NCBI GenBank assembly: GCA_965279375.1
Contig: OZ257156.1
Span: 608,001 to 672,000 of the forward strand
Direction of reading: 5' to 3'
Source of the DNA: Gemmatimonas sp.
GTDB taxonomy: Bacteria; Gemmatimonadota; Gemmatimonadetes; Gemmatimonadales; Gemmatimonadaceae
DNA: 64,000 nucleotides
Within the stretch, counting starts at the first letter, position 1. Each line of letters begins with the position of its first letter. The position numbers were made by a program, and so were the translations under genes. Below, piece after piece: positions 1-23,400 of this stretch. Below the pieces are notes generated by a model. It ran no database searches and had not been told where the DNA came from. It saw only the letters and a list, made by a program, of their open reading frames with translations.

Positions 1-447
1 CCGCATCTGGTCCGGCGGAATCACGACAGCCGCATTCACGACGCGCTCGGACTTGGTGCCGAGCATCGCCTCGGCCGTGATGTTGAACAGACAGTCGGAC
101 TGCTCCCAGCGGAAACGCAACGAGGCCTCGTTGGGCGCGTCGCGCGGGTCGGGGGTGCGGGTCCAACCGGCAGCGCGCACCCGCTCGTAGAAGCGCACCG
201 CCTCACGCTGCACGCCGATCTCCGTCGCACCAGCAGCGGTGATGCGGCAGCCGGGCACGCGCTGTCCCGTCCGCCAGTCATCGATCGTGTCGCGGTCGAT
301 GACAGCGGTCATCTGCTGCGTCTCTCGCGCGAAGCGTGCCGCGGTCGCACAGTGGACCGTGTCCGCGGGCTGCGCGCCGGCAGAGATCAGCAGCAGCGAA
401 ATCAGTTGAATCGACACCACCACTCCGTTGAGCTCGTGTTCATGCAT
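1..447 (-). CDS. Hypothetical, probably exported protein; truncated at window start
   Basis: Manual translation from ATG at 447 (MHEHELNGVVVSIQLISLLLISAGAQPADTVHC...) stays open to position 1; hydrophobic signal-like segment; divergent from cbbM. Confidence 0.6.
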   Translation of the reverse strand, partial: MHEHELNGVVVSIQLISLLLISAGAQPADTVHCATAARFARETQQMTAVIDRDTIDDWRTGQRVPGCRITAAGATEIGVQREAVRFYERVRAAGWTRTPDPRDAPNEASLRFRWEQSDCLFNITAEAMLGTKSERVVNAAVVIPPDQMR

Positions 448-548
448 GTCACCGTACGGGACTCCCCTGACTTACTGCGCCCCTCTGCAATGCTACCTTG
501 GCCCGCGTGGGCAAGATACCGCCACATCATTTCCCGGACCCAACGGCC

Positions 549-1928
549 ATGGACCAATCGAATCGATACGCCGACCTGACCCTCGCCGAAGCAGAGCTCA
601 TCGCTGGTGGCGAGCACATTCTCGCGGCATACAAGATGAAGCCCAAAGCCGGACACGGATATCTGGAGGCTGCAGCGCACTTCGCGGCGGAGTCCTCCAC
701 CGGCACCAATGTCGAAGTCTCCACCACCGACGATTTCACGCGCGGTGTGGACGCGCTCGTCTATCATATCGATGAAGCCACGGAAGAGTTGCGCATCGCC
801 TACCCGCTCGCGCTCTTCGACCGCAACATGACCGATGGGCGCATGATGCTGGTGTCGTTTCTCACGCTCGCTGTGGGCAACAATCAGGGCATGGGCGATA
901 TCGAGCACGCCAAGCTCTACGACTTCTGGGTGCCGCCGCGCGCGCTGCAGCTTTTCGACGGGCCCGCCAAGGACATCTCCGATCTCTGGCGCGTGCTGGG
1001 ACGCCCGGTGCAGGACGGAGGCTACATCTCCGGCACGATCATCAAGCCAAAGCTTGGGCTGCGTCCGGAACCGTTCGCCGAAGCAGCGTACCAGTTCTGG
1101 CTGGGCGGCGACTTCATCAAGAACGATGAGCCGCAGGGAAATCAGGTCTTCTCGCCCATGCGCAAGGTGATCCCGCTGGTGGCCGACGCGATGCGACGCG
1201 CGATGGACGAAACGGGACAGGCCAAGCTCTTCTCGGCCAACATCACCGCCGACGATCACTACGAGATGTGCGCGCGCGCCGATTTCATTCTCGAGACGTT
1301 CGGCGACGATGCCAACAAGGTGGCGTTTCTGGTGGACGGCTTTGTGGGTGGACCAGGGATGATCACGACCGCACGACGCCAGTACCCTAACCAGTACTTG
1401 CACTACCATCGGGCCGGTCACGGCATGGTGACGTCGCCGAGTGCCAAGCGCGGCTATGATGCGTATGTGCTCGCCAAGATGGCGCGGCTGCAGGGTGCGT
1501 CGGGCATTCACGTAGGGACGATGGGCTTCGGCAAGATGGAGGGCGCCAACGACGATCGCGCGATCGCCTACATCATCGAGCGCGACGACTACCAGGGGCC
1601 AGCCTTCCGTCAGCAGTGGTTGGGCATGAAGCCCACGACGCCGATCATCTCCGGCGGCATGAATGCGCTGCGCCTGCCGGGATTCTTTGCGAACCTGGGT
1701 CACGGCAACGTGATCACTACAGCAGGCGGCGGCGCGTACGGCCATCTTGATTCACCGGCCGCAGGCGCGATTTCGCTGCGGCAGGCGTATGAATGCTGGA
1801 AGGCCGGCGCGAACCCGATCGAGTGGGCACGCAGCCACCGCGAGTTCGCCCGTGCGTTCGAGTCCTTCCCGCACGACGCGGACCAGCTCTACCCGGGATG
1901 GCGCGCTCAACTCGGCGTCAGCGGCTGA
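549..1928 (+). CDS. cbbM: Ribulose-1,5-bisphosphate carboxylase/oxygenase, form II
   Basis: N-terminus [22 protein letters not shown], catalytic motif [47 protein letters not shown]; no small subunit gene. Confidence 0.97.
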
Positions 1929-1956
1929 TTGCCAACGGCTAATTGCCAACGGCTGA
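1922..1956 (+). repeat. 14-bp tandem repeat x2.5 (CGGCTRATTGCCAA) spanning the cbbM stop
   Basis: cggctgattgccaa / cggctaattgccaa / cggctga. Confidence 0.8.
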
Positions 1957-1986
1957 CCCTTTCACCAGACACGTCACCACACACGC

Positions 1987-3060
1987 ATGCCCATCGGCGG
2001 ACGTTCCACCATCGCGCAGTTCCTCATCGAAAGCCGTCGTCGCGCCACGACGGCGACGGGCGAGTTCGACTCGTTGGTTACCGATGTGGCGCTCGCGTGC
2101 AAGGCGATTGCCAATCGCGTGGCGTTTGGCGCGCTTGGCGATACCACCGGGCGCGCCGGCACACAGAACGTGCAAGGCGAGGAGCAGCACACACTCGACG
2201 TCGTCGCCAACGAGCTCTTTCTGCGGGCCACCGAGTGGGGCGGTCACCTGGCCGGCATGGTCTCCGAGGAGATGGAGGAGGTGTACACGCTGCCGGTCGA
2301 GTATCCGCGCGGAAAGTATCTGCTCTGCTTCGATCCACTCGACGGCTCGTCGAATGTCGATGTGAACATGACCGTGGGTAGCATCTTCTCCATTCTGCGT
2401 GCCCCGACGCCCGGACAGGACGCGACGCGCGAAGACTTTTTGCAGCCGGGCACGGAGCAGGTGTGCGCGGGCTACGCGGTGTACGGCCCGAGTACGATGC
2501 TGGTGCTCACGATGGGCAACGGCACGCACGCCTTCACGCTCGATCAGCAGTTGGGCGAGTGGGTGCTGAGTCATCCAGACCTTCGCATTCCCGACGAGAC
2601 GCGCGAGTTCGCGATCAATGCGTCCAACAGTCGCTTCTGGGAGGCGGCGGTGAAGCGCTACGTGGACGAATGTCTCGCGGGTCAGTCTGGGCCACGCGGC
2701 GTGGACTTCAACATGCGCTGGATTGCTTCGCTGGTGGCAGAAACGCATCGCATCCTGATGCGTGGTGGTGTGTTTCTCTATCCGCGAGACACGAAGGACG
2801 TCTCCAAGCCCGGGCGCCTGCGGCTGCTCTACGAGTGCAACCCCATCGCGTTCGTGATCGAGCAGGCGGGAGGCATGGCCAGCACGGGACATTCGCGTCT
2901 CACCGACGTGGTGCCCACCGCGTTGCACCAGCGCATCGGCTTTGTGTTCGGATCGCGCGCCGAAGTGGAGCGCATCGAGCGCTATCACTCCGAAGATCCG
3001 CACGAGCCCTACGCGTCGCCGCTCTTTGCACGACGCGGTCTCTATGCCGCACCCGACTGA
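1987..3060 (+). CDS. cbbF: Class I fructose-1,6-bisphosphatase (Calvin-cycle CbbF type)
   Basis: NVQGEEQHTLDV, SEEME, FDPLDGSSNVD, RWIASLVAETHRIL, GRLRLLYECNP; between cbbM and prk. Confidence 0.93.
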   Translation: MPIGGRSTIAQFLIESRRRATTATGEFDSLVTDVALACKAIANRVAFGALGDTTGRAGTQNVQGEEQHTLDVVANELFLRATEWGGHLAGMVSEEMEEVYTLPVEYPRGKYLLCFDPLDGSSNVDVNMTVGSIFSILRAPTPGQDATREDFLQPGTEQVCAGYAVYGPSTMLVLTMGNGTHAFTLDQQLGEWVLSHPDLRIPDETREFAINASNSRFWEAAVKRYVDECLAGQSGPRGVDFNMRWIASLVAETHRILMRGGVFLYPRDTKDVSKPGRLRLLYECNPIAFVIEQAGGMASTGHSRLTDVVPTALHQRIGFVFGSRAEVERIERYHSEDPHEPYASPLFARRGLYAAPD

Positions 3061-3095
3061 TCGCGTTCGGCGATCCTTTGTCCCTCAGTTCCCTT

Positions 3096-3143
3096 TCGAG
3101 TTTCCTGTCGAGTTTCCTGTCGAGTTTCCTGTCGAGTCTCCTG
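3096..3143 (+). repeat. 12-bp tandem repeat x4 (TCGAGTTTCCTG) abutting the prk start codon
   Basis: Three exact copies plus TCGAGTCTCCTG, then ATG at 3144. Confidence 0.9.
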
Positions 3144-4022
3144 ATGTCAGCGAAGCATCCGATCATTTCGATTACCGGTTCGTCCGGCGCGGGTACCACG
3201 TCGGTTACGCGCACGTTCGAGAACATCTTTCGTCGCGAGGGCGTGAAGGCGGCCATCGTGGAAGGGGACAGCTTTCATCGCTACGATCGTGCGGCGATGA
3301 AGGTCGCGATGGCCGAAGCCGAGCGGTCGGGCAATACCACGTTCAGCCATTTCGGTGACGAAGCGAATCTGTTTGCCGAACTGGAGCTGCTGTTCAAGGA
3401 CTACGGCGAAACGGGGCAAGGGACCGCGCGCAAGTATCTGCACAACAACGAGGAAGCGGCGCCGTTCAATCAGCCGCCGGGCACGTTCACGTCATGGGAG
3501 CCGTTGCCGGCGAGCGAGCTGCTGTTTTACGAAGGGTTGCACGGCGCGGTGGCCACGGACACGGTGGACGTGGCGCGTCACGCCGACCTGCTGATTGGTG
3601 TGGTGCCGGTGGTCAATCTCGAGTGGATTCAAAAGATCCACCGCGATCGCAACACGCGCGGCTACAGCACCGAAGCCGTGACCGACGTGATTCTCCGCCG
3701 CATGCCCGACTACGTGCATTACATTGTGCCACAGTTCAAGCGCACGCACGTGAACTTCCAGCGCGTGCCCGTGGTGGACACGTCGAATCCGTTCATCGCG
3801 CGCACCATTCCCACCGCCGACGAAAGCCTCGTGGTCATTCGCTTCGCCAATCCGCGCGGCTTCGACTTCCCCTACCTGCTCAGCATGTTGCAGGGATCGT
3901 GGATGTCACGTGCCAATACCATTGTCTGCCCCGGCGGCAAGATGGAGTTGGCGATGCAGCTGATCTTCACGCCGATGGTGATGCGGCTCGTGGAACGTGG
4001 CCGCAAATCCAGTGGCACGTGA
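3144..4022 (+). CDS. cbbP: Phosphoribulokinase, proteobacterial type
   Basis: MSAKHPIISITGSSGAGTT P-loop, EGDSFHRYDR, FYEGLHG, NLEWIQKIHRD, NFQRVPVVDTSNPFIAR. Confidence 0.96.
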   Translation: MSAKHPIISITGSSGAGTTSVTRTFENIFRREGVKAAIVEGDSFHRYDRAAMKVAMAEAERSGNTTFSHFGDEANLFAELELLFKDYGETGQGTARKYLHNNEEAAPFNQPPGTFTSWEPLPASELLFYEGLHGAVATDTVDVARHADLLIGVVPVVNLEWIQKIHRDRNTRGYSTEAVTDVILRRMPDYVHYIVPQFKRTHVNFQRVPVVDTSNPFIARTIPTADESLVVIRFANPRGFDFPYLLSMLQGSWMSRANTIVCPGGKMELAMQLIFTPMVMRLVERGRKSSGT

Positions 4023-4690
4023 AGCCATTTCGACAGCTCGGGTCAGCCACCGCGCCTGACGGCACGCTGCTCACGCTCTTCGAGCACGACGGCGCTTACA
4101 TGATCCGCGTGAACGGCATCGAGCTGATGTCCACGCGGCGCCACCAGTCAGAGGATGCGCTCGCCGAGCTGGTCTGCGCACCGCTGGCGCAGCAGCGCGG
4201 CGTGCGCGTGTTGATTGGTGGGTTGGGACTGGGGTTCACGCTGCGAGCCGCGCTGCGTGTGCTTCCCGCGGACGCACAGGTGGAAGTGGCGGAGATCGTG
4301 CCGGAGGTCGTCGCGTGGAATCGCAATCCGGAATTTGCGTTGTCGCACGCCGCGCTGGCCGATCCGCGCGTGACCGTACTCGAAGAAGACGTTGGGCGTG
4401 TGCTACGTCGCAGTCAGAACTGGTTCGACGCGATCATGATGGACGTGGACAACGGCGCCGAATCGTTCACGACGCGCAGCAACGCGGCGCTCTATCGCGA
4501 ATCGGGGGTGCACTTTGCTGTGGCCGCGTTGCGGTCGGGTGGGCGCGTGGCGTATTGGTCTGCCACTGCCGAAGAGAACTTCGCCGGCACCATGCGGCAT
4601 GCGGGCCTCGAGGTGCGCGTCACGCAGGTGCGCGCGCACACCACCGCCGGCCCGATGCACACGATTCTGGTGGGGCAGCGCAAGGAATGA
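4019..4690 (+). CDS. Spermidine-synthase-like SAM-binding protein
   Basis: GTG start overlaps prk TGA; ELMSTR, VLIGGLGLGFTL SAM motif, FDAIMMDVDNG. Confidence 0.8.
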   Translation: MKPFRQLGSATAPDGTLLTLFEHDGAYMIRVNGIELMSTRRHQSEDALAELVCAPLAQQRGVRVLIGGLGLGFTLRAALRVLPADAQVEVAEIVPEVVAWNRNPEFALSHAALADPRVTVLEEDVGRVLRRSQNWFDAIMMDVDNGAESFTTRSNAALYRESGVHFAVAALRSGGRVAYWSATAEENFAGTMRHAGLEVRVTQVRAHTTAGPMHTILVGQRKE

Positions 4691-4832
4691 TCAAATCGCC
4701 ATCAAATCCTATGCAACTGCTCACGCGGCCGTAATCGCGACGTAATCGTGCCCTCATGGGCGCTTCACGTACGCGGTGAACGATGGAGACAGGTCGGGCA
4801 TGCGGTCCGGCCGTCACCATCAGGAGGCCTGC

Positions 4833-5537
4833 ATGTTCAGCACCCTGCTCGAAACGAACAACGCACCCGCGCGTCGCGGCGGTGGTTCGCTGCTCTCCGT
4901 CGTCGTGCATGTCGGCGCTATCGCGGCGTTGGTCATCGCGACAGCCAATGCGTCCGTGCCCACGGTCGACGAGCAGCGGGTGGAGCAGCTCCACTTTACC
5001 AAGCCAGCGCCAACGCCTCCTGTGCCTGTTCCACCGTCGGCCAAGCAGGTGTACACGGCGGCACCGCAGGCCCGGGGCTTCAGTACCGTGATTGCGCCCA
5101 TCGACATTCCGTCGGTGCTGCCCAACATCGATCTCAGCGTCACGCCAACCGATCAAACGCGCTTCTCCGCACGCGGCGTGCAGGGCGGCAGCCCCGATGG
5201 CATCGAGGGTGGCACGATCGTCGCGCCAGCGAACGGCGTCTACAGCGCGCTGCAGGTGGAGAAGGCGGTGGTGCCGCTGCCCGGCGCCACAGGTCCGGCC
5301 TACCCCGAGATGCTGCGCTCGGCGGGCGTCGAAGGTTCGGTGCTCGCGACGTTCGTGGTGGACACGAGCGGACGCGCCGACCTCGTGTCGTTCACCGTGC
5401 AGCACAGCGATCACGCGCTCTTCGCGTCGGCGGTCCGCACGGCGCTCGCGCGCATGCGATTTCTCCCGGCCGAAGCGGGCGGACGCAAAGTGCCTCAGCT
5501 CGTGCAGCAGACGTTTCAGTTCAACCTGAACCGGTGA
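4833..5537 (+). CDS. TonB family energy transducer
   Basis: AGGAGG RBS; N-terminal TM SVVVH, Pro-rich linker, C-terminal PAYPEMLRSAGVEGSV...FVVDTSG. Confidence 0.85.
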   Translation: MFSTLLETNNAPARRGGGSLLSVVVHVGAIAALVIATANASVPTVDEQRVEQLHFTKPAPTPPVPVPPSAKQVYTAAPQARGFSTVIAPIDIPSVLPNIDLSVTPTDQTRFSARGVQGGSPDGIEGGTIVAPANGVYSALQVEKAVVPLPGATGPAYPEMLRSAGVEGSVLATFVVDTSGRADLVSFTVQHSDHALFASAVRTALARMRFLPAEAGGRKVPQLVQQTFQFNLNR

Positions 5538-5559
5538 GCGACGCGCAGAGCTTCAGACC

Positions 5560-7479
5560 CTAACCCCCGATCGGCGATCCCGGCGCGCGCGCCAACCCGA
5601 TGCGCTTGAACGCCAGCGTGATCTCATCGAGCGTGCTCGGATCGTCGATCGTGGGTGGCATCGTCCAGCCATCACCGTCGGCGATCGCGCGCATCGTTTT
5701 GCGCAGCACCTTCCCCGAGCGCGTCTTGGGCAAGCGCGCCACCACCGCCACTTGCTTGAAGTTGGCCACCGGCCCCACCTGATCGCGCACCAGTTGCACC
5801 AGCTCCGCCTCGAGCGCGAAGTGCAGCCGGTCCACGCCGGCCTTGAGCACCACGAGTCCAACCGGAAGCTGCGTCTTCAGCGCGTCGCGCACGCCGATCA
5901 CCGCGCACTCCGCGACATCAGGATGGCTGGCCAACGCCTGCTCCATCGAACCAGTGGAGAGATTGTGCCCCGCCACGATGATGATGTCGTCCACGCGACC
6001 CATGATGAACAGATAGCCGTCTTCATCGATGTAGCCGCCATCGCCGGTGAGATAGTAGCCCGGGTACTTGCTGAGATACGTCTCGATGTAGCGTGCATCG
6101 TTGCGCCAGAGCGTAGGCAACGTCCCCGGCGGCAGCGGCAGCTTGATCACCACCGCGCCTTCGCGATTGGGTGGCAGCGCGTGGCCGTCGTCGTCGAGAA
6201 TCTCCACGACGTATCCCGGCACCGCCTTCGTTGGAGATCCTGGTTTGACGGGAAATGGCGAAAGCCCAAGACAGTTGGCCGCAACCGCCCAACCGGTTTC
6301 CGTCTGCCACCAGTGATCGATGACGGGCTTGAGCAGCAGCGCGCGCGCCCAGTGATACGTGTCGGGATCGAGTCTCTCGCCGGCAAGAAAAAGCGTGCGA
6401 AACTTCGACGTGTCGTACTTCGCGAAGAACGTCCCCTTGGGATCTTCACGCTTGATCGCGCGAAATGCCGTCGGTGCGGTGAACAGCACACGCACGTCAT
6501 GCTCCTCGATCACGCGCCAGAACTCACCGGCATCGGGCGTGCCCACCGGCTTCCCTTCATGCACCACTGTCGTGCATCCGGCCAGCAACGGTGCATACAC
6601 GATGTACGAATGCCCCACAGCCCATCCAAAGTCCGAGGCGGCCCAGAACACTTCACCCGGCTCCACGCCATACACGTTCCGCATGCTCCAGAGCAGCGCG
6701 ACCGCGTGTCCACCGTTGTCGCGTACGACGCCCTTGGGCTGCCCCGTGGTTCCCGATGTGTAGAGGATGTACAGCGGATCGGTGGCCAGCACTGGTACAC
6801 AGTCGGCGGGCGCCGCCTGCGCTTCCACCTCACGCCAGTCGAGGTCGCGCCCCGGCGTCAGCGCACAGGGATGCACCTCGCGCTGCAGCACGACACAGTG
6901 CGACGGTTGATGCGTGCTCAAGGCCAACGCCTGATCGAGCAGCGGCTTGTACGGCACCACCCGCTGCACTTCGATCCCGCAGCTCGCCGTCAGCACCACC
7001 TTGGGCTGCGCATCATCGATGCGCACCGCGAGCTCATGCGGCGCGAAGCCGCCAAACACCACCGAGTGCACCGCGCCGATTCGCGCACAGGCGTACATGC
7101 CAATCAGCGTTTCCGGCGTCATCGGCATGTAAATCACCACTCGATCGCCGCGCTCCACGCCCAGATCGCGCAGCACACCGGCAAAGCGCGCCACCTCATC
7201 GCGCAGTTCGCGATACGTGATGTGCCGCTTGGTCTTGGTCACCGGGCTGTCGTAGATGACCGCGACCTGCTCCGCCCGACCGTTCAGCACATGCCGGTCG
7301 ATCGCGTTGTAGCAGGTGTTGAGCTGACCGCCCGTGAACCATCGATAGAGCGGCGCGTTCCGGTCATCGAGCACCCGCTCCCACGGCACATCCCAGTGCA
7401 GCGCCTGCGCCGCCTCCCCCCAGAAGGCCTCCGGGTCTGACGACGCCGCCGCGTAGGCGGCCTCGTAGGCGCTGCTCAT
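5560..7479 (-). CDS. prpE: Propionyl-CoA synthetase (acetate/propionate-CoA ligase family)
   Basis: YILYTSGTTGQPKGVVRDNGGHAVAL, DHWWQTETGW, LPKTRSGK; start re-picked at MSSAY. Confidence 0.85.
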   Translation of the reverse strand: MSSAYEAAYAAASSDPEAFWGEAAQALHWDVPWERVLDDRNAPLYRWFTGGQLNTCYNAIDRHVLNGRAEQVAVIYDSPVTKTKRHITYRELRDEVARFAGVLRDLGVERGDRVVIYMPMTPETLIGMYACARIGAVHSVVFGGFAPHELAVRIDDAQPKVVLTASCGIEVQRVVPYKPLLDQALALSTHQPSHCVVLQREVHPCALTPGRDLDWREVEAQAAPADCVPVLATDPLYILYTSGTTGQPKGVVRDNGGHAVALLWSMRNVYGVEPGEVFWAASDFGWAVGHSYIVYAPLLAGCTTVVHEGKPVGTPDAGEFWRVIEEHDVRVLFTAPTAFRAIKREDPKGTFFAKYDTSKFRTLFLAGERLDPDTYHWARALLLKPVIDHWWQTETGWAVAANCLGLSPFPVKPGSPTKAVPGYVVEILDDDGHALPPNREGAVVIKLPLPPGTLPTLWRNDARYIETYLSKYPGYYLTGDGGYIDEDGYLFIMGRVDDIIIVAGHNLSTGSMEQALASHPDVAECAVIGVRDALKTQLPVGLVVLKAGVDRLHFALEAELVQLVRDQVGPVANFKQVAVVARLPKTRSGKVLRKTMRAIADGDGWTMPPTIDDPSTLDEITLAFKRIGLARAPGSPIGG

Positions 7480-7641
7480 CTCTTGCTCATCTCTTTGCTC
7501 ATGCGCGCGAACATCGCGCCGGTCCATGACGCTGTCGAGACGCATTCCGAGGGCCGCGACGCAGGGGTTTCTCCCACACAAGCCGCCTCGACTGCGTGAA
7601 GCCGTCCTCAACTTGCCGGAACTCAGGCCGATCCTAGAGAG

Positions 7642-10600
7642 GTGTCTCTACGTCCTGTCTTCCATGATCCCTCCGGCCGCCGCGGTCGCCTGACGCGTTG
7701 GGTGGCCTTTCTGGCTGTCGCCGCCACGGTCCTCGTTGGCGGCTCGCTCGCGCTCGGCGTGTTGCACCCGCCAGTGGTCGAACCCCTGCCGATGCGCTCC
7801 GGCGCGTCGATCGCTGCCCGCGCGCCAAGGTCACGCGGACCGTCCGCCTCGCAATGCGGCAGCGCCATGCGGCGCCGCTGCCCCCCGATGCCGCTCCCCA
7901 CGCATCGCGCCGAACCGGTCGCCGATCCGATCGTCGCCGCCTTCGCCGTACAATGGGATGCCGGGAGCCGAGCCGCGCTGAAGAAGGTAGGCGACCACCT
8001 GGATTGGGTGATCGTGGAAGGCGCCTTCATGGGACGCGCTGGTCTTGGCGAGCTGACGATCACGATGGACAAGGACCTGCTCGCCGACGCCCGCAGCCGC
8101 GGCGTGGACGTGCACCTGATGGTCACCAACTTTGCCGGCGGCTCCTTCAGTGAGCAGCTGGTGGACGTCATCGTCCGCACGCCGGAGCGCCGGCGCAACG
8201 CCATCGCCCAGCTGGTGGGCGCGGTGGACGAGTTCGGCCTCCGCGGCATCTCCCTCGACTTCGAAAAAGTCCGCCCCGAGTCCCACGAGGCGGTGCTCGC
8301 CTTCATCCGCGAGCTGCGCACCTCGCTCGCCCCCTCCGGCGCCACGGTCTCCATGGCGATGCCGTTGGGGGAAGACACCAGCTACCCGATCGCCAAGTAC
8401 GGCGCCGCGGTGGACTATCTCATCCCGATGCTCTACGACGAGCATGTGGCGGGGAGCGATCCCGGTCCGATCGCCAGCGCGACCTGGTTTGCGCAGGCGC
8501 TCGATTCGGTGCTGACGCTGATGCCCAGGGAGAAGCTTCTGGTGGGGCTGGGGCAGTACGGCTATCACTGGCGCGACGACCAGACGGACGGCGTGAACGT
8601 CAGCGTGAGCGAGGCGATGGCGCTGGGACGGTCAGCCACGGGCGGCCCGTGGTTTGATGCAAAAAGCCGGTCTCCACATGCTGAGTGGCGCGATAATGCT
8701 GGTTTAATGCACCGTGTATGGTATATGGACGCGACCACGGCCTGGAATCAGATCCGGGCCGCGAACCTCACCGGGACCGCCGGCGTCGCCCTCTGGCGGC
8801 TGGGCAGCGAGGACGTCACCCTCTGGTCCGTACTCGGCCGAACCGGCCTGACCGGCACCACCGCAGCGCTCGAAACGCTGCCATCCAACGGCATCTCCGT
8901 ACTCATCGGCGACGGCGAAGTCCTGGCCGTCGATGGCCGACAGGGGAGCGGCAACCGCACCATCGGCGTCGACTCGGCGGGCTTCGTCGAAACCGAACGC
9001 ATCGTCAAACCGGCGGGCGGCTACGTCATCACCCGCGCCGGCGCCGCCACCAAACGCGTCGCCCTCACCTTCGACGACGGCCCCGACCCCGAGTTCACGC
9101 CGCAGGTGCTGGACACGCTTAGACAGCGAAAGACCGTCGCCAGCTTCTTCGTGATTGGGCGGCAGGTGCAACGCTACCCCGAGCTGGCGCGGCGCATGAC
9201 GGCCGAAGGCCATGAGATCGGCAACCACACGTGGAGTCATCCCGACCTCGCCGGCCTGAGCGAGTCCGCCATCAAGTTCGAGCTGGCCGCCACCGGGCGC
9301 GTGATCGAGGCCGTGACCGGCCGCCGTCCCATGCTCTTCCGTCCGCCGTATATCGGCGACGCCCGCCCCTCCACCGAAGAGCGCCTGCGGCCGATGGCCG
9401 TCGCCAACGAGCTGGGATATCGCGTGGCCGGCCTGGAAGTCGATGCGCGCGACTGGGAGCAGCAGGACCCAGCCGCCATCATCGCGACCACGCTCGATGA
9501 GCTCGATCACGGCAAGGGCAACATCATCCTGCTGCATGATGCCGGCGGCGACCGCACCCCCACCATCGAAGCGCTCGGTCCGCTGATCGACTCGCTGCAC
9601 GCGCGCGGCTACACCATCACCACCGTGGCGGGACTGCTCGACGTGACGCCGGAGGCGGGCATGCCCGCGGCCCCCACCGCAGAGGCGCCGCACCGATTGC
9701 TGGACTTCGCAGCGCTGCGACTGCTGAGCACCGCCGAAACCGTGCTGGTCGGGGCGTTCCTCGTCGCACTGGTGCTGGGATTCGTGCGGCTGCTGGGCAT
9801 CGGTGGTCTCGCGATGTGGCAGCGATCACGACAACGCTTCGCCAGACGCCTGTCGGATGTGGGCTACGCACCGCGCGTGACCATTCTCGTGCCCGCGTAC
9901 AACGAAGGGCGCGTCATCGCGCGCACGATCGACTCGCTGCTGACGCAGGACTATCCGCTCCTCGAGCTGATCGTCATCGACGACGGCTCCACCGATGACA
10001 CCCTCGATGTCGCGCTCGCCGCCAACCGCGACGCACGGGTGCGCGTGTTGACGCAGAAGAACGCCGGCAAGTCGCACGCGCTGAACTTCGGCATCTCGCA
10101 AGCCACCGGCGAGATCGTCGTAGTGGTGGACGCCGACACGTTGCTCGCCCCGATGGCCATCCGACATCTCGTGCGTCCGCTCGCCGACGTGCGCGTTGGC
10201 GCCGTGGCCGGCAACGCCAAGGTGGGCAATCGCGTCAACCTGGTCACCCGGTGGCAGGCCGTCGAATACGTCACCAGTCAGAACCTTGATCGCCGCGCGT
10301 TTGCGATGCTCAACTGCATTACGGTGGTGCCCGGCGCGATCGGTGCCTGGCGACGTGACGCCGTGCTGGCAGCAGGCGGATTCCGCTCCGACACGCTCGC
10401 GGAAGATCAGGATCTGACGATGACGCTGTTGCGCGCCGGTCATCGCGTGGCGCTCTCGGACAAGGCGATCGCGTGGACGGAAGCGCCTGAAACGTTCGAT
10501 GCGCTGCTCAAGCAACGATTCCGCTGGAGCTTTGGCACACTGCAGTGCGCGTGGAAGCATCGCGGCGCGCTCTTCCGGCGCTCGGGCGGCGCGTTGGGCA

Positions 10601-11088: not shown

Positions 11089-12354
11089 ATGCGGATCTTC
11101 CTCAGCTACGCCTCGCAGGATCGCAGTGCCGCGGAGCCCATCAATCGCGCACTCCTCGATCAGGGGCACGACGTCTTCTTCGATCGAGACGATCTCGCGC
11201 CGGGTGAGGAATATCACATCCAGATTCGCAACGCGATCGAGCGTTCCGAACTGTTCGTCTTTCTGATCAGCGACGACGCGCTCGACACGGGGAGCTACAC
11301 GCTCAACGAACTCGCGATGGCCGAACGCGTGATCACGCGGGCCTCGGGGCGTTTGCTCCCCGTGATGCTGCGCCCCACGTCGTTCGATCGCATTCCCGAG
11401 TTCGTGAAGTCGGTCACGCTGCTGCAGTCGCCGGGCAACATCACCGCCGCGACGGCCGACGCGGTGCATCGCCTCGCGCAGAAGCGGCAGCGCGCGCTCT
11501 GGGGAAAGATCGCTGGCGGCGTGACCGTGGTCGCGCTCCTCGCGATCGGCGCGTGGTCGCTGCGCGGCAACGTGAAACAGACCGCCACTCTCCCGGCCGA
11601 CTCGAGTGCCGCGACGACATCGACGACTGCCACAGGCGCAGGGTCGAATGCGCCCGCCGCTTCCATCGACGGAGCGCCGGAGTCACTGGTGCCTGCCGGT
11701 GCCTTCGTGATGGGCGACGACGAACACGCCCCGATGCGCGAGGTCTATGTAGACAGCTTCTACATCGACACGTACGAAGTCACGACGAGTCGCTACGCGA
11801 AATTTCTCGCAGCAACCGGCGGTATTGCGCCGCCCGATCAATGGGAGACGCTCGAGCCGACAAAGCATGCAAACCTTCCTGTCATCGGCGTGAGTTGGAC
11901 GGATGCGCGCGCGTACTGCGCGTGGGCGGGACGTCGCATGCCGACCGATGCGGAATGGGAGAAGGCCGCGCGCGGCACGGATCAACGACTCTATCCCTGG
12001 GGAAGCGTCTCGCCGGGCATCGATCGAGCCAACTTCGGCAACGCCTCGCCCAGTGCGTACGACGGCGGGTTGTCGGACGTCGGGTCGCACGCAGCAGGAC
12101 GGAGTCCATACGGCGTCGAAGACCTGGCCGGCAACGCCAACGAGTGGGTCGCTGATTGGTACGCCGAGTCATTTCCGCGCAGCGATGTGCGAAATCCGGT
12201 TGGGCCGGAGAGTGGCCCTGGTCGCGTCGTGCGAGGTGGTGGCCGCTATGAACCGCCAGAACGCTTGCTCTCCGCGCGCCGTTACTACGCGGCTCCTGAT
12301 GGTCGACAGGACGATCTGGGCTTCCGTTGCGCACGGAGTGTGCGCGCACGCTGA
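11089..12354 (+). CDS. TIR domain - TM - FGE-sulfatase (SUMF1-like) domain protein
   Basis: IFLSYASQD, VFFDRDDL, YTLNEL (TIR); TM helix; FVMGDD, YEVT, RMPTDAEWEKAARG, DLAGNANEW, LGFRC (FGE). Confidence 0.88.
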   Translation: MRIFLSYASQDRSAAEPINRALLDQGHDVFFDRDDLAPGEEYHIQIRNAIERSELFVFLISDDALDTGSYTLNELAMAERVITRASGRLLPVMLRPTSFDRIPEFVKSVTLLQSPGNITAATADAVHRLAQKRQRALWGKIAGGVTVVALLAIGAWSLRGNVKQTATLPADSSAATTSTTATGAGSNAPAASIDGAPESLVPAGAFVMGDDEHAPMREVYVDSFYIDTYEVTTSRYAKFLAATGGIAPPDQWETLEPTKHANLPVIGVSWTDARAYCAWAGRRMPTDAEWEKAARGTDQRLYPWGSVSPGIDRANFGNASPSAYDGGLSDVGSHAAGRSPYGVEDLAGNANEWVADWYAESFPRSDVRNPVGPESGPGRVVRGGGRYEPPERLLSARRYYAAPDGRQDDLGFRCARSVRAR

Positions 12355-16194: not shown

Positions 16195-19122
16195 ATGCGG
16201 AGCCTGTCCTCACGCCTGCTCACACTCTGCGCGGTACTAGCGTCGCCGATGGCGGACCGATCCATAATGGTCGCGCCGCCTCTGCCGCGCGCCGAGCGAT
16301 CTGCGCCGTTGTCAGTGAGCGCGCGCGAACTGAGCGCCGCCGCGTTGCGCGCGGCTGAAGTCGGCACGCTCGATCGATGGAGTACGCCGTGGAATGAGCG
16401 ATTGCGTATCGCTCCCACCGACCGCTCAGCGCTGTTCGCGGTGGCCACGTCGGAGCGGCTGCGGTATCGACTGCTGCGCGCCGACTCGCTGTACGCACGC
16501 GTGGCTTCTTCAGCACCCGATGACGTGCTGGCACGACAGGCGACCCTCTGGCGCGCGACGCTGCGCGCTGTGCGCGGCCAGGCGGCAGAGGCGAGCACGC
16601 AACTCCTTCAGCTCGAGCAACGGTCGCTTCGCGACACAGATACCTCGACGGCGCTGGACGCGATTCTCGTACGATCCGCAACCGTGATGCGCGTTGACGG
16701 CGCATCGGCGGCGGCGCTCGTCCTCGCGCGCGGCGACTCGCTCCGCTGGTCGCGCGAGCCAATGCTCGACGCTGCGTCGCGCTGCCGCTGGGCCTCGGTG
16801 CGTTCACGGCTCGGGGATCGCCTGTCGGCGCGCAAGCTTGCACGCGAAGGTGAAGCGATCGCACTGCGCGCCGGGCTTTCGCGACTGGCAGCGACGTGCG
16901 TGTTCACCTTGGCGACGGAGTTCGCTCGTAGCGGCCTCACCGACTCGCTGCGTGCGCCGATGCTGCGCGCGATCGCCATGCAGGAGCGCACCGGAGACCT
17001 GGCGGGACTGGCGAGCACCAGTCAGTGGGCCGGATTCTATGTGTCCTCGCTCGGCCACTTCACGCCCGCGCAGCGGTATCTCGCGACGGCGTGGAGCGCG
17101 TCCATGCGGGCGGGAGTGGTGGACGTGGCCGCGTGGACAGCGCTCAATCGTGCGGCAATCGCGCAGCGCTTCTTCGATGCCGCGGCCACGACACTCTGGC
17201 TGGCGCGTGCGGATTCACTGATGCGCATCGTCAACGATCCGCAAGGTCGCATTGAAGTATCGCGGACCATGGCGCGTCAGTCAGCGCTGCTGGGCGACTA
17301 CGATGGCGCACGGGCGCAGTTGATTCAGGCGCTGGAAGTCGCAGAGCGACTGGGTGAGCCTACTGGGCGCGTATCGATCATCGCGACACTGCAGGACACC
17401 GACCTCCGCGCGGGGCGGCTCGACGATGCGGCCCGATGGCTACGCGAGAATGAAGTGCTGATTGAGCGATACAAAATGTCAGGGTTGCTCAGCTCGCAGC
17501 ACGACCGCGAGGCGGAGCTGGCGTTGCATCGCGGCGACGCGCGTACCGCACTGCAACTGCTGGATCACGCCGATGATGCGCTACACCCGAGCCAGTATCT
17601 CTATCGTCACGGACTGGAGCTCCGGCGCTCGCTCGCGCTGGCCATGACCGGCGACGTGGCCGCCGCAGCGCGCTCAGCGCTTTCTGCGGGCGATACCTTC
17701 GATCGCTGGCGGGCCTCGTTGAGCGACAGCTCCTTGCGGTTGCTCACGGTTCAGGCGCAACGCGGCAGCGGTTGGTACGTCTCTGAACTCACCGCGCGCC
17801 TCGCCGACGCGGGCGAAGTCGAGGTCGCGTTCACACTCGCTGAGCGTCGTCGTGCGCGGGATCTGCGTGAGCGACTGCTGATGGCGGGGGGCACTCGTCT
17901 GGCGCCCGACGCAACACCGCTGGGCATCGACGCACTGCGCCGTGCGATTCCCGATGCGTCGACTGCCATCGTCACGATCGACGCCGGCGAAGATGACGCG
18001 CGCGGGACCGCGTTCATCCTCACGCAGCAGTCGATGACAGCGTTCCCGATGCCATCGGTTCGCGAGATCGCGCCGCGCATTCGTCGGCTGGTTGCGTGGC
18101 ATGAATCCGGACGCGACGCGTCCGTCGATGCACGAATGCTGGGCACTGCACTGATTGGCCCGCTGCTCTCTCAGCTCGACAGCGAACGGATCACGCGCCT
18201 CGTGATTCTTCCCGAAGGCGTGTTGCATCGCCTGCCCTTTGATGTGCTTCGACTACCGGATGGGCGCTATCTGTTGGAGCGATTCGAGACCGCGGTGGCA
18301 CCGTCGGCCAACGTACTGGCCAGACTGCGCGCGTTGCCAAGCGTGATTGGCTCGTCGACAGCCGCAGGCAGCACCGGACGCGCGCGCGCACTGGCGCTGG
18401 CCGATGCGCGCGTCCCCGTGCGAGTGGGCACGGACACGACGCTGGGCGGCCGACTACTGGCTGCGATGCTGGGGCGCGACAGGCGCTTGCCGCGTCTTGT
18501 CGGTGCGCGCGACGAGGTCGCCTGGATCGAGCGCGCGATGCCCGGCACAGTCGGATTGCGCGGTGCTGCAGCGCGAGAGGATGTGTTCAAACGTGATGCC
18601 GGCGGTTTCCCACTGCTGCATCTGGCAACGCACGCCGTGGTGGATGAATGGTCGGGTGCGACCGCGGCCATCGCGCTGACGCCCGGCGGCGACGACGATG
18701 GCACGCTCGACAGTGGAGAAATTTCGACGCTGTCGCTCAACGCCAACGTGGTCGTCCTTTCGGCCTGCCGCACCGTCGGCGGCGAGATCATCGCCGGCGA
18801 AGGAGTACGCGGACTGACCAGTGCGTTTCTTCAGGCCGGCGCGCGCAGCGTTGTTGCAACGTCGTGGCGCGTGAACGACCGTGCCGTGGTACCACTGGTG
18901 GGCGCGATGTACGAGTCGCTGGCGCTCGGTCAACCGATCGGGCGCGCGCTGCGTGACGCCAAGCTCGCGTCGTTGGCGCGCGGCGATGGTCCTTCGGTTT
19001 GGGGCGCGTTCACGCTCGTCGGTGATCCGATGCGTACCGTCTCTGCCGCGTCGCGCGCTACCGCACCCGTAGTCGCACCACCCGCGAGCGGCGCTCGTTT
19101 CCGTCCACGCGGCGCGCCGTGA
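16195..19122 (+). CDS. TPR-like repeat + C-terminal CHAT (caspase-like) protease
   Basis: LVILPEGVLHRLPF, LLHLATHA (His), VVLSACRT (Cys), AFLQAGARSVVATSWRVND, WGAFTLVGD; helical N-terminal region; possible signal peptide. Confidence 0.9.
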   Translation: MRSLSSRLLTLCAVLASPMADRSIMVAPPLPRAERSAPLSVSARELSAAALRAAEVGTLDRWSTPWNERLRIAPTDRSALFAVATSERLRYRLLRADSLYARVASSAPDDVLARQATLWRATLRAVRGQAAEASTQLLQLEQRSLRDTDTSTALDAILVRSATVMRVDGASAAALVLARGDSLRWSREPMLDAASRCRWASVRSRLGDRLSARKLAREGEAIALRAGLSRLAATCVFTLATEFARSGLTDSLRAPMLRAIAMQERTGDLAGLASTSQWAGFYVSSLGHFTPAQRYLATAWSASMRAGVVDVAAWTALNRAAIAQRFFDAAATTLWLARADSLMRIVNDPQGRIEVSRTMARQSALLGDYDGARAQLIQALEVAERLGEPTGRVSIIATLQDTDLRAGRLDDAARWLRENEVLIERYKMSGLLSSQHDREAELALHRGDARTALQLLDHADDALHPSQYLYRHGLELRRSLALAMTGDVAAAARSALSAGDTFDRWRASLSDSSLRLLTVQAQRGSGWYVSELTARLADAGEVEVAFTLAERRRARDLRERLLMAGGTRLAPDATPLGIDALRRAIPDASTAIVTIDAGEDDARGTAFILTQQSMTAFPMPSVREIAPRIRRLVAWHESGRDASVDARMLGTALIGPLLSQLDSERITRLVILPEGVLHRLPFDVLRLPDGRYLLERFETAVAPSANVLARLRALPSVIGSSTAAGSTGRARALALADARVPVRVGTDTTLGGRLLAAMLGRDRRLPRLVGARDEVAWIERAMPGTVGLRGAAAREDVFKRDAGGFPLLHLATHAVVDEWSGATAAIALTPGGDDDGTLDSGEISTLSLNANVVVLSACRTVGGEIIAGEGVRGLTSAFLQAGARSVVATSWRVNDRAVVPLVGAMYESLALGQPIGRALRDAKLASLARGDGPSVWGAFTLVGDPMRTVSAASRATAPVVAPPASGARFRPRGAP

Positions 19123-19807
19123 CCATCCAGTCCGCCGCGGCGTGCTTTCGCAAAAGCGCCGCCTCGGACTCCGAGAGTGTTAGCGTCGAGTCGCTTGTCT
19201 CACGCGCGAGAATCACCACACCCGCACTGTCGACCAGTTCAAACGCATAGCGAACGGCGCCGGGCACCGCGTGCCAGACGAAGACGGGCAACGACTCCGC
19301 GACTTCCTGCATTGGCGCAACCAGGCTGACCTCGGCGGGATCTCCGCGAACGATCGAGCCGCGCGACTGCCGCAACCGCTGGCCGCCGATGCCGACCGCG
19401 ACAAGCACCAACGCAGCCGCTGCGAGATTGCGCAGCGACCACATCCGGGGCGCTGTCCTGCTTACGGCGCGTGACTTGGTGGCACCGGTCGGCTGTGTGT
19501 CAGTTACTCGCAGGCGATCGGCAGCCTCCGCCTCCGCGATACTCCGTAGCAGCGCAAACTCGGCGTGACACGAGGTACAGCGCAGCACGTGTTCGAGCTG
19601 CTGCAGATTGGGATCGCCCGCCGTCGCGCCGCGCGCGAGCAGTTCCAGCGCCTCGGGTGATGGACACGCCTCGCGAGAGACCGGCCGAGCGGCGTCGGCA
19701 TTCGCCTTCGTGTGTGCTTGAAACGCAGCACGCAGCGAAGCGCCGCCCTGATGGTCGCTCACGTCGCTCTTGTCGTCGTGCGTGTTGTCGCTTTCGTGCT
19801 CGCTCAC
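19058..19807 (-). CDS. Zinc-binding (zf-HC2/ZAS) transmembrane anti-sigma-like protein with extracytoplasmic beta domain
   Basis: CPSPEAL...HVLRCTSC (HxxxCxxC), TM LAAAALVLVAVGIG, FVWHAVPGAVRYAFEL; GTG overlaps sigma stop. Confidence 0.8.
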   Translation of the reverse strand: MSEHESDNTHDDKSDVSDHQGGASLRAAFQAHTKANADAARPVSREACPSPEALELLARGATAGDPNLQQLEHVLRCTSCHAEFALLRSIAEAEAADRLRVTDTQPTGATKSRAVSRTAPRMWSLRNLAAAALVLVAVGIGGQRLRQSRGSIVRGDPAEVSLVAPMQEVAESLPVFVWHAVPGAVRYAFELVDSAGVVILARETSDSTLTLSESEAALLRKHAAADWMVTARRVDGNERRSRVVRLRVR

Positions 19808-20433
19808 GCGTCCTCCGGCCATCGATAGCCCGCGCGAACGAGTCGCTCCCGCAGGTCCTGCAGTCCGCGATACAGCAAATTGCGAACTTTCGCGTCTGAC
19901 CAACCCAACACCGTCATGATCTCGGCGCGCTCGTAGCCCGACAAATGCATCCGCACCACGATACGTCGCGCTTCGACGATCGACTCGAGCTCACGCGCGA
20001 CGGCCGCACCGAGCTCGGACTCCAGAAGCGCAGCGTCGGTCTGCTCATCCGCGATCAACGACGACGGAGTCGCAACGTCCAATGCGGGCTCGCGCTCCTC
20101 CGTTCGGCGCCGCTGCCGTACGAGGTCCACGGCCGCCGTCATCGCCGTCCGATACACGTAGGACGTTGGCAACTGCGCAATCTGCTCACTGTCGGGATGC
20201 GCACGCCAAATCCGAACGCGCACCTCCTGAACAAGGGCATCCAGGTCGGCGTCGGTCAGGCCATGCCGAACGCCCGCTGCGCGCACCATCCGACCGAGCC
20301 GTTGCAGTACGGCTTCGATCGGGAGCGACAGCATATCCGGTGACGATTTCGGCGCGTTCACGGCATCGATCGTAGATCGCAAACCGGCTGCCCGCCAGCG
20401 GCCATCCAGTGAGTCGCGGTCAATTGCGGTCAA
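19804..20433 (-). CDS. ECF sigma-70 factor
   Basis: DLDALVQEVRVRIW, YVYRTAMTAAVDLVR (sigma2); EIMTVLGWSDAKVRNLLYRGLQDLR (sigma4); start uncertain (TTG 20433 or ATG 20334). Confidence 0.87.
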   Translation of the reverse strand: MTAIDRDSLDGRWRAAGLRSTIDAVNAPKSSPDMLSLPIEAVLQRLGRMVRAAGVRHGLTDADLDALVQEVRVRIWRAHPDSEQIAQLPTSYVYRTAMTAAVDLVRQRRRTEEREPALDVATPSSLIADEQTDAALLESELGAAVARELESIVEARRIVVRMHLSGYERAEIMTVLGWSDAKVRNLLYRGLQDLRERLVRAGYRWPEDA

Positions 20434-23400
20434 TTCCAGCCAAACAGCGCGCCGATCCTCGAGTCGCGGGACGCAAGCTCAAACCCTCCCATCAGATATC
20501 CTTGCAGATCGCCTTCCGCACGACTCGCGAGCGATTCCAGGTCGAGCTGCACTGCGGCCGCCTCACGTGTCTTGCCGTGCGCTGAAAGTTCGCTCATGCG
20601 CCGTAGCAGCACGCCATGCGCCCACGCCGCCCGATGGGCGCGGGTCCGCGAGCCTGCCGGCGCATCATCGACGTAGGCCTGCACAACGGGGCCGAGCGAC
20701 CGAGCGGGAGACGCAGGTACCGCCGCACCGCCCGCTTGCTGCAGCGCCGTGATCGCATCCAACGCGCGGGCGAACTTCGCCGCCGGTGGCTCGACGGGCG
20801 CGTCGGTTAGCGATGCATGCGACAGCAATCGATCACGCAGTGCCGCGCTCACTGCAGTCAGCTCTGCATCGAACGCTTCACCATCTGTGAGCGCCAGCCG
20901 TAGCGCCTCCGCCTGCGCGGCGGCGCGCTCCGGTTCAAGGTGCGTGATGCGCTGTGCACTATAGAGAAAGTAGAGCAAGCCGGCGGCCACGCGTTGCGCA
21001 TCGAGTTGGATCGTGCGTGGCAGCCAACCGCGCTCGATCGCGCGCAATACCCACTGCCGAGCGACTGCCTCGCACGGATGTGCCTCGACGAAGCGATTGC
21101 GCTGGCCCATCACCACGATGTTGTAGCAAGAATCGGCCAGCGACAGCTCGTGGAGTCGCGGCTCAACGAGATCTCCCGATCGCGTCGACTGTCGATCGAC
21201 GGAGTATTGAATCTCGAAGAACGCTGCCACGGCCGGATCGCTTCGATCGTTCACCGACAACCCGCCCGCGTTGAACGTCTCGGGCTCCCGCTCGAGATCC
21301 GCTCGCTCACGTTCGGCCAACAGCGCCCGCACCACGCCGCGCCACTCCGGCTCACTCAACGCGATCCGTTCGGCGAGGCTGATCGCGCGATCGAGTGCGA
21401 GGTTTGCGGCAGCCTCGCTGCCAGCCTCTCCTCCGCCAAGATTCGCCATCTCCGAGTCACCGGCAGTCGCCGAGCGTAGCGCGCTGGCCGCGAGTTGCTG
21501 GCAGACCGCTTCCACATCGGGTGCGCCGAGGTCGCGGGCAAGTGCGCAGAGCGCGAGTGCCTCGCTCGCGGACGGCGTCGGTTCACCCTCTTCGACGGAG
21601 AATGCGAATATTCCTTCCACACAATCGAGTGCGGCGCTCAGGCGAAGCTGCGCCGGGTCCGACTCGAGCGACTCGCGCGCTGTCATGAGCAACTTCGTCA
21701 ACGTCTCGGACTGCGTTTCGGGCGCGCGCAACCCGACACAGAACTCCGCCACGCATCGCAGCAGGGCGACCGCGATGTCATCGCTCGCACCCCAGTCGTC
21801 GTTGCGTTCATCGCCGACGTGATCGTTCCGACGATCCGCGACGTGCTCGCTGTCGCCCAAGCGGCGCCACGGGTCGCCGAAGAGCAACAATGCTCCCCAT
21901 GCATCTGGGGCGTGCGCGGAGGACGCTGCCGCGCGCGCGTGGCGCATTGCGCTACCCACGGTGTCGGTCAGGGCATGGCGATAGAATGCTTCTGCCATCT
22001 CAGCGGCAACCGTATCGTACACCGGCAGTTGACTGGCCACGACCGCTGGTGCGCCACGCTGCATCAGAGCGGCGGCGAGCCCGCGGCTCGCTCCGCCGCC
22101 CAGATAGTCACTGGCGCCGACAGAGCAGACGTTGAGGTACGTGATCGCGGCGCATTCGCTGGCCGCCGAGAGTACATCAGCGGTGGAAAGTCGCGCGCTG
22201 GGTGAGAGCCAGATGCTGTGCAGGCCGTCTTCAACGTCTGCGTGCGCGGCGACATGCACGAGCGCCGCCGCACGCAGACCGCGCAGCATCGAGGAAGCGG
22301 AGAGCTCGTCCGAAGGGAGCTCCGGGACGTCCCACGCGCCGCGCGCCCGCAGCGCGTGCGCGAGACGATCACGCTCGGGCGTCGCAAACGGCAGTGGGTC
22401 GGATGAAATCGCTTCCGCGGCGGCGACGCACAGCGCACGAGCCGGCGCGACCTCCATGCGCGTGGGCGCTTCGAGAATGGTCGTGAGTGCGCGCAGCGAC
22501 GACGCGCGCGATACGACGTGCGTGGTGCCCAGATAGCCGCGCGTGGTTCGCAACAGTTCCCAGGGAATCTCTGCCTGCGCCGCCGAAAGATCGGGAGAGA
22601 TGAGCAGCGTTGCGTGCGACTCGATGAGGTGCTGCACGCGCGGTGGAATGGACGACCAGATTGCGCGCGCTGCGGCGTCGAGCGTCGCCGTCGCGGCGTC
22701 TTCGTCTACCGTTTGCTGATCGAGGAAGGAGCGCATGATCAGCGACACTGAATCGGCAGCCGATTCGAACCCGTCGAGCGCGCGATGCAGCTCCAGACCG
22801 CCCTCTGCCGTCACCACCACGAGCGTGGTACCGCGCGCCGTTGCCGTCGGAATGAGAACGAGCGTGCTCGCCAGTGCCGCGTCGCGCGCCCCCTGCTCCT
22901 CCGACGCCTCGCGCCGAGTGCTCTGCGCCATTCGCTGTGCGATGCGCCCAAGCCAATCGTTGGCCAGTGCACGCGCACGTTGCACCGGGCTTGCCCGATC
23001 GTGATCGGTGCGATCGGCAAACACCTCATCGGTAGTGCGCGTGGTTTCAAGGCACGCCGAGAGGCGCACGCGGGCGTTGTCATCGCCTGAGTCCAGATAG
23101 CGTGCAATGGCTGCGTCTGTGACGCGATGTAGCGCGCGCTCCGCGTACGCGCGAAATGGCAGATGCTGCAGCGTATCTCGCAGCGACTTCTCCGTCAGCC
23201 GATAGCAGGTCATGAACAGCTCGATCGACGCCGTGGTCGCTTCGCCTTGCGTGCGCACGAGGTAGTCGAGTCGATCGTAGGCGACCGTCGTCCAGGAGAG
23301 CGCGTCGGCCGCGCGTGTGAGTGCAGCATTGGCCTGCGCAAAGTCGGCATGCGCAAGGTCGGCATGCGCAGATTCGGCATGCGCGTCCGACGCGTCGTGC

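Follow-up and report, generated by a model that had tools for sequence, protein, structure and literature searches.

Calvin-cycle genes have already been published from phototrophic Gemmatimonadota (PMC6748926, PMC10581226). The available parts of these sources describe soda-lake metagenome-assembled genomes (MAGs) in which pufLM occurs together with form IC RuBisCO and prk (PMC6748926), and report type I RuBisCO along with puf in soda-lake and wastewater MAGs and type II RuBisCO in 36.7% of the wastewater MAGs (PMC10581226). Here we describe a three-gene form II RuBisCO operon, cbbM-cbbF-cbbP, in a stretch of 64,000 nucleotides (the window) that spans positions 608001–672000 of the genome of a Gemmatimonas sp. 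(G000; single contig, 5,309,734 bases). The simplest reading of its distribution is that the operon was present early in the genus and was then lost repeatedly, and gene content suggests that it serves, somewhat more probably than otherwise, as an electron sink in low-oxygen photoheterotrophy.

Cultured phototrophs of the genus offer a second point of reference. According to the accessible text of PMC7844134, Gemmatimonas phototrophica and Gemmatimonas groenlandica lack prk and a true RuBisCO, although one has a form IV protein, and G. groenlandica showed no autotrophic growth. The same text leaves undecided whether phototrophic Gemmatimonadota descend from CO2-fixing anaerobes, as is thought for aerobic phototrophic Proteobacteria. 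Freshwater phototroph MAGs are reported, in the excerpts available, to have form IV only (PMC8547001), and aerobic anoxygenic phototrophs to be without RuBisCO and usually without bchE (PMC12654162).

The operon and its host

The operon comprises three co-directional genes at window positions 549–4022, each of which scores above its curated NCBIfam cut-off. They are listed with bchE, which lies farther along the window.

549–1928 (+): cbbM, form II RuBisCO large subunit, 459 amino acids (NF010002, 887.6 bits vs cut-off 489)
1987–3060 (+): cbbF, class 1 fructose-1,6-bisphosphatase (FBPase) of the proteobacterial cbb type, 357 amino acids (NF006779, 508.6 bits vs 349)
3144–4022 (+): cbbP, proteobacterial-type phosphoribulokinase (PRK), 292 amino acids (NF011997, 498.3 bits vs 362)
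25399–27090 (+): bchE, oxygen-independent Mg-protoporphyrin monomethyl ester cyclase (TIGR02026, 779.9 bits vs 481)

CbbM is classed as a form II RuBisCO. Its best PDB match is 5c2c ('Form II RubisCO', 887 bits), form I and form III models score below cut-off, and all nine active-site motifs sought are present, including the carbamylated lysine in GDFIKNDE and the loop-6 lysine. A small-subunit query (cbbS of plasmid pHG1) gave no match in the G000 genome. CbbF is 66% identical to the CbbF of pHG1. We take Cupriavidus necator CbbF to be bifunctional, with FBPase and sedoheptulose-bisphosphatase (SBPase) activities, and we infer SBPase activity for the CbbF of G000 as well. CbbP matches PDB 1a7j at 425 bits. 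The ratio of nonsynonymous to synonymous substitution rates (dN/dS) is 0.06–0.08 for cbbM (against the carriers G074 and G301), 0.16 for cbbF, and 0.07–0.08 for cbbP, with dS near 1, and all three genes are intact and under purifying selection. The gaps between the genes contain tandem repeats, a 12-bp unit repeated 4.8 times at 3087–3143 (between cbbF and cbbP) and a 14-bp unit repeated 2.4 times at 1922–1954 (after cbbM); none were seen in the corresponding gaps of G074.

The G000 assembly is 99.95% complete with 0.95% contamination, and contigs assembled from a pair of runs on one sample, which may be the source DNA itself, are identical to window positions 1–3978 and 3949–8000. A preliminary description of the window had raised the prospect of a contig that is proteobacterial or chimeric at the cassette edge. 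This proved not to be so: the operon lies on a single Gemmatimonadaceae contig of low contamination, the run contigs match it, and the same operon with the same neighbor occurs in G074, G012, G301, G414, and G242. The description's account of intact form II motifs with FBPase and PRK in one co-directional run held (nine of nine motifs, all NCBIfam cut-offs passed), as did its placing of bchE about 21 kb away (20.7 kb as measured from 4690). Its right-hand border for the cassette, 4690, has to be moved to 4022, as the gene at 4019–4690 is a resident neighbor.

The host is, by its gene content, a Gemmatimonadaceae phototroph with genes for a type II reaction center and bacteriochlorophyll, which bears out the earlier suggestion of a probable Gemmatimonadota phototroph. 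Housekeeping genes of L015, a record named as Gemmatimonadaceae, are 40–78% identical to their G000 matches. A full photosynthesis cluster at ~3.08–3.13 Mb includes pufLM, bchFNB, bchYZ, acsF, and ppsR, and PufM is closest to PDB 9h19 and 7o0u, which are presumably Gemmatimonas complexes. The genes bchE, hemN, and bchJ lie outside the cluster and all score above cut-off (TIGR02026, TIGR00538, and TIGR02019, respectively); bchE is separate from hemN-bchJ in G000, and the three stand together in G047. In G057, which is close to G074 and has no cbbM, bchE is matched only in part (C58:12735-13733), and the matching stretch contains a stop codon. Five nonphotosynthetic genes (von Willebrand factor A-, phosphatase-, and kinase-like) lie between puh and puf (G000 3109194-3115439), and eight tandem ABC-permease-like paralogues adjoin the cluster (G000 3136167-3146215).

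At the gene level, the Calvin-Benson-Bassham cycle is predicted to be complete in G000. The preliminary description correctly saw no cbbR, cbbQ/O, transketolase, or aldolase flanking the cassette, and none adjoins the operon in the window; transketolase, aldolase, and the other cycle enzymes are encoded elsewhere in the genome. Queries from pHG1 located tkt, gap, pgk, and rpe. A triose-phosphate isomerase gene, recognized from sequence only, lies beside that of phosphoglycerate kinase (PGK), and RpiB and a second, housekeeping FBPase are present. Class I and typical class II aldolase queries came back empty, yet aldolase is not missing, as PF01116 identified a divergent class II protein (46.6 bits vs 25.5). 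The pHG1 queries gave no match to form I RuBisCO or cbbX in G000, and no form IV RuBisCO-like protein was found there. A frameshift divides the assembled transaldolase gene (3046329-3047491); because contigs from the two runs carry one more base at this place, the split is an assembly error.

Distribution, ancestry, and probable loss

We compared G000 with a genus set of 87 genomes and a family sample of 401 genomes, one of which counts only as a non-match. Form II cbbM is rare, being found in 4 of the 87 genus genomes (G000, G074, G012, and G047) and in 6 of the family sample. PRK occurs in 6 of the 87, the copies in G048 and G050 going with form I RuBisCO, and cbb-type FBPase is more widespread (30 of 87 in the genus; 12 genomes from 3 of 77 genera in the family sample). 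For the other genes considered below, the genus counts are 57 for pufLM, 17 for bchE, and 12 for a group 2a-type hydrogenase; bchE is found in 24 genomes of the family sample. Form II and form I RuBisCO occur together in G301, G390, G414, and G468, and several form II carriers have cbbLSX as a second locus. The cbbF-cbbP pair also accompanies form I RuBisCO in the family: G048 has the order cbbL-S-X-F-P, and in G352 and G430 the pair lies next to the core gene described next while form I RuBisCO is located elsewhere in the genome.

The site of the operon is marked by a divergent gene outside the cassette.

1–447 (-): core gene of 170 amino acids, function unassigned, extending 65 bases beyond the start of the window

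This gene matches no Pfam family, its nearest Atlas clusters are mostly from Gemmatimonadota, and it lies directly upstream of cbbM in six genomes from two genera (G000, G074, G012, G301, G414, and G242). Its presence in 75 of the 87 genus genomes rules it out as an accessory of the cassette.

Each of the three proteins forms a single Gemmatimonadaceae group in its tree: CbbM with nine rows (the window, seven relatives, and L015; support 97), and CbbP and CbbF with seven rows each (support 100/99 in both). The trees contained 88 rows for CbbM, 28 for CbbP, and 26 for CbbF. CbbM is 81–87% identical to proteobacterial records, and the closest rows outside the family, among the best 80 matches, are from Accumulibacter with weak support (36). 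Because the outside rows are these best 80 matches, mostly from beta- and gammaproteobacteria, and the trees have no true outgroup, the donor is described here only as betaproteobacterium-like. From the trees and synteny, the operon probably entered the family once from such a donor.

The preliminary description had proposed a proteobacterial-type cassette acquired horizontally by this host. The proteobacterial type stands; a fresh import into the host does not. GC content at third codon positions (GC3) of cbbM, cbbF, and cbbP falls at the 43rd–51st percentile of the G000 genome, the operon occupies the same site in two genera, and relics of it are found in 26 genus genomes, where a cbb-type cbbF is present but cbbM and cbbP were not found. 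In 19 of these 26, the orphan cbbF is directly beside the 170-amino acid core gene, at the place that cbbM occupies in G000. A recent genomic island is ruled out by the genome-average GC3 and by these relics at the site, and no mobility genes were recognized in the operon flanks.

That relatives retain cbbF alone at one site makes it likely that the group lost the operon several times. In an RpoB DNA tree (23 rows; 22 of 30 requested genomes matched), carriers are scattered, the operon state needs five changes, and each genus carrier has close relatives with orphan cbbF or with nothing. Between G074 and the pair G038 and G003, cbbF is 86 and 82% identical, respectively, and the flanks 84–88% identical, while G038 and G003 are without exactly cbbM and cbbP. 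The simplest reading would be an operon present early in the genus and then repeatedly lost, often leaving cbbF; regain by recombination from close kin is possible. In an RpoB protein tree (30 rows), the three carrier genera do not form one clade and three changes are needed, so that one gain in an ancestor shared by these three genera alone is not supported. Two histories would then fit equally well: the operon entered the family once and was afterwards passed between genera, or it was gained very long ago and widely lost.

Proposed role of the operon

We favor, by a modest measure, a role for the form II operon as an electron sink in low-oxygen photoheterotrophy, as in purple non-sulfur bacteria; redox balancing had been among the roles named in the preliminary description. 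In this scheme, light-driven cyclic electron flow would supply ATP under little or no oxygen, and the oxidation of organic substrates would yield surplus NADH. CbbP would make ribulose bisphosphate, CbbM would fix CO2, and CbbF would provide the SBPase step, with host PGK and glyceraldehyde-3-phosphate dehydrogenase consuming NADH. The Calvin cycle is the likely sink because no nitrogenase or anaerobic reductase was found in G000. A motif scan of this genome gave only two NifH-like motifs, those of BchL and BchX, both in the pigment cluster. Molybdoenzyme reductases for nitrate or dimethyl sulfoxide (DMSO) are likewise not found in G000, the molybdopterin family occurring only in an alternative complex III subunit and NuoG, and neither are nosZ and norB (N2O and NO reductases). 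Nitrogenase is a common, though not universal, second electron sink in purple non-sulfur phototrophs. In photoheterotrophic R. palustris, redox potential is balanced by form II RuBisCO, as stated in the available part of PMC9431616.

The distribution of bchE points the same way. Within the genus, bchE is present in all four cbbM carriers vs 13 of 83 other genomes (Fisher p 0.001; p 0.005 among 48 good genomes), and in the family sample in five of six form II carriers vs 19 of 395 others. No such co-occurrence was seen in the genus between cbbM and pufLM alone (p 0.61) or between cbbM and hydrogenase (one of four carriers, p 0.45). As cbbM tracks bchE and hydrogenase is found in one carrier of four, low-oxygen phototrophy, and not H2-based autotrophy as a general cause, is pointed to as the condition that retains the operon. 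Photosynthesis genes occur in eight of the nine form II carriers, and pufLM specifically in G000, G074, and four of the five carriers from other genera.

Several observations weigh against this assignment. The Fisher tests overstate the link between cbbM and bchE, because the species tree leaves only four independent contrasts (3.6 concordant, 0 opposed, p 0.125); we regard the link as suggestive and not as proof. Thirteen genus genomes carry bchE without cbbM. [quoted passage not shown] Incomplete assembly affects all the relatives, most of which are fragmented MAGs, and a gene's absence from them counts for little. In G000 itself, neither the activase CbbQ nor a clear CbbR was found (best LysR match, 31% identity), and genes for H2 and sulfide oxidation together with an aa3 oxidase make other uses of the operon possible. 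The scatter of the carrier genera in the RpoB protein tree belongs here as well.

One such use, which we consider rather doubtful, is photolithoautotrophy or lithomixotrophy, in which electrons from H2 or sulfide would enter through hydrogenase or flavocytochrome c and pass by light-driven reverse flow through complex I to NADH for Calvin-cycle biomass. G000 has genes that would serve it: a complete cluster at 1765527-1780017 encodes a NiFe hydrogenase, the proteins for its maturation, and a two-component pair, the hydrogenase large subunit matching PDB 7uus/7utd (presumably Huc, a group 2a hydrogenase) at 884 bits with the next match at 212; an FccB-like flavoprotein with a cytochrome neighbor (an FccAB-like sulfide dehydrogenase pair) is encoded at 2026160-2027820; and complex I genes are present. 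In the part of PMC7784904 available, H2 raised the growth of two carbon-fixing species with such a hydrogenase, but not of the non-fixing G. aurantiaca. Against a general role of this kind stand the hydrogenase in a single cbbM carrier among four, when 12 of the 87 genus genomes have it, and the failure to find SoxY, form I enzyme, cbbS, cbbX, or activase in the G000 genome. Of the genes that the preliminary description had suggested seeking in the genome, puf/bch, tkt, and hydrogenase were thus recovered, and cbbQ and SoxY were not.

It is unlikely, to a greater degree, that the operon acts independently of light as a sink or supplement in microaerobic chemoheterotrophy, its tie to photosynthesis reflecting only a shared low-oxygen habitat. 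The operon of G301, with no photosynthesis gene found beside it in the genome, would fit this, as would the cbb3 and bd oxidases that G000 has along with aa3, the weakly supported position of Accumulibacter among the best 80 CbbM matches, and the wastewater MAGs, in which, as far as the available text of PMC10581226 goes, form II is found in 36.7% vs puf in 16.3%. However, eight of nine carriers have photosynthesis genes and eight of nine have bchE, whose product serves nothing but pigment synthesis. In light, moreover, the ATP that the Calvin cycle costs is more easily supplied. That the operon is silent, a remnant in the course of being lost as it already has been in relatives, seems very improbable: most of the genus has lost it (4 of 87 retain cbbM), each carrier has sister lineages without it, and no regulator or activase was found, but the three frames are intact, the active-site motifs are conserved, and dN/dS is 0.06–0.16 at dS near 1.

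The CbbF tail, flanking features, and known systems

Three further features lie in and around the operon.

3001–3057 (+): C-terminal tail of CbbF, approximately residues 339–357, core PLFxxRxL, beyond the FBPase fold
467–499 (+): candidate promoter element upstream of cbbM, CYGACW, 20–21 nt, TACBTY
4019–4690 (+): spermidine-synthase-like gene overlapping the cbbP stop codon, with weak, below-cut-off matches to NF002956 and PF01564

The CbbF tail follows the presence of cbbP. Within Gemmatimonadaceae, it is found in all 11 cbbF copies that are followed by cbbP and in none of 25 orphan copies (a broken copy in G043 excluded); in proteobacterial loci it is found in all 18 with cbbP adjacent and in neither of two without, as judged by eye, the strict pattern having caught fewer. 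The overall contrast is 29 of 29 vs 0 of 27, among rows that are related to one another. Residues P345, L346, F347, R350, and L352 are invariant across 26 rows. The tail lies outside solved FBPase folds and has a predicted local distance difference test score (pLDDT) below 50 in a monomer model. The tail may serve for docking on PRK or for adjusting SBPase activity; alternatively, the deletions that take away cbbP may simply cut it off. Should the pattern hold up in larger sets, the tail would offer an easy way to recognize Calvin-cycle bisphosphatases and might also provide a mechanism for them.

The promoter element is a lead only: its pattern occurs in five of nine cbbM upstream regions and 15 times genome-wide, and it was derived from those very sequences. 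Matches in a promoter and terminator scan were not above chance, and no FNR or PpsR box was found upstream of cbbM. The gene at 4019–4690 is ruled out as a member of the cassette, being absent from the G074 locus and present near the 170-amino acid core gene in G076, where that site is without a cassette. In G390 and L015, cbbP is followed by a fourth operon gene, a proteobacterial class II aldolase, and G390 also has a LysR-like gene upstream; this four-gene operon is possibly a less reduced form. Elsewhere in the window, a protein encoded at 11089-12354 joins a TIR domain to a formylglycine-enzyme-like domain, and a divergent block at 16315-24359, low in coding score, contains a gene like those for extracytoplasmic function (ECF) sigma factors and two large proteins.

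What is added here to the published record is a near-complete genome of a phototroph with a form II operon, evidence for the operon's age in the genus and for its decay to a cbbF relic, a suggested link to bchE, and the CbbF tail. G000 would retain the older state that descent from CO2-fixing anaerobes predicts, and its relatives display steps of loss at one locus. A far-reaching version of this, which we offer as speculation and think unlikely as a whole, is that the ancestor of the genus was a CO2-fixing, facultatively anaerobic phototroph resembling purple non-sulfur bacteria; that repeated losses of cbbM, cbbP, and bchE gave rise to the present aerobic photoheterotrophic Gemmatimonas, with tail-less cbbF as the fossil; that G000 is also photoautotrophic on H2 or sulfide; and that the tail is an undescribed docking or specificity motif in bisphosphatases of the Calvin cycle. 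A literature search that covered few subscription papers returned no account of a form II operon that occurs with puf in this family, of cbbF relics, of the bchE link, or of the tail, and the available parts of PMC12654162, PMC12011081, PMC10576062, PMC11194577, and bioRxiv 10.64898/2026.09.02.748891 do not mention a cbbM-cbbF-cbbP operon.

The operon has the enzyme families and the fbp-prk pair that are found in the form II (cbbM) operons which purple non-sulfur bacteria and betaproteobacteria carry (R. palustris, R. sphaeroides cbbII, and R. rubrum; PDB 5c2c, 4lf1, and 1a7j), and the redox role proposed for it would be the same as theirs. Unlike them, it has three genes only, with no cbbR, cbbQ/O, tkt, gap, or aldolase within; in 83 comparison loci, there are 50 open reading frames with CbbQ motifs. 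The host differs from purple non-sulfur bacteria in belonging to another phylum and in having no nitrogenase found.

Within the phylum, G000 is like the cultured phototrophic Gemmatimonas in having a photosynthesis cluster with acsF, and, as with the microaerophilic species in the accessible text of PMC7844134, bchE and hemN; it is unlike them in having cbbM and cbbP and no form IV protein. The possession of cbbM, cbbP, and bchE also sets it apart from aerobic anoxygenic phototrophs as characterized in the available part of PMC12654162. Like the MAGs of PMC10581226, Gemmatimonadaceae carry form II RuBisCO, sometimes beside form I, and the form II MAGs of that study and the carriers described here are probably the same clade; the portion of that source available ties phototrophy to type I only and, for type II, describes neither an operon nor its synteny, origin, or role, and some of its type II MAGs may be puf-positive. 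The MAGs of PMC6748926 likewise join Calvin-cycle genes to a type II reaction center, there described, in the part available, by one transfer followed by vertical descent and with activity unproven. In that source the form IC enzyme is alphaproteobacterial and belongs to order SG8-23, whereas the form II enzyme of G000 is of betaproteobacterial type and belongs to Gemmatimonadaceae, and is accompanied by cbbF, bchE, hydrogenase, and relics of the operon in relatives.

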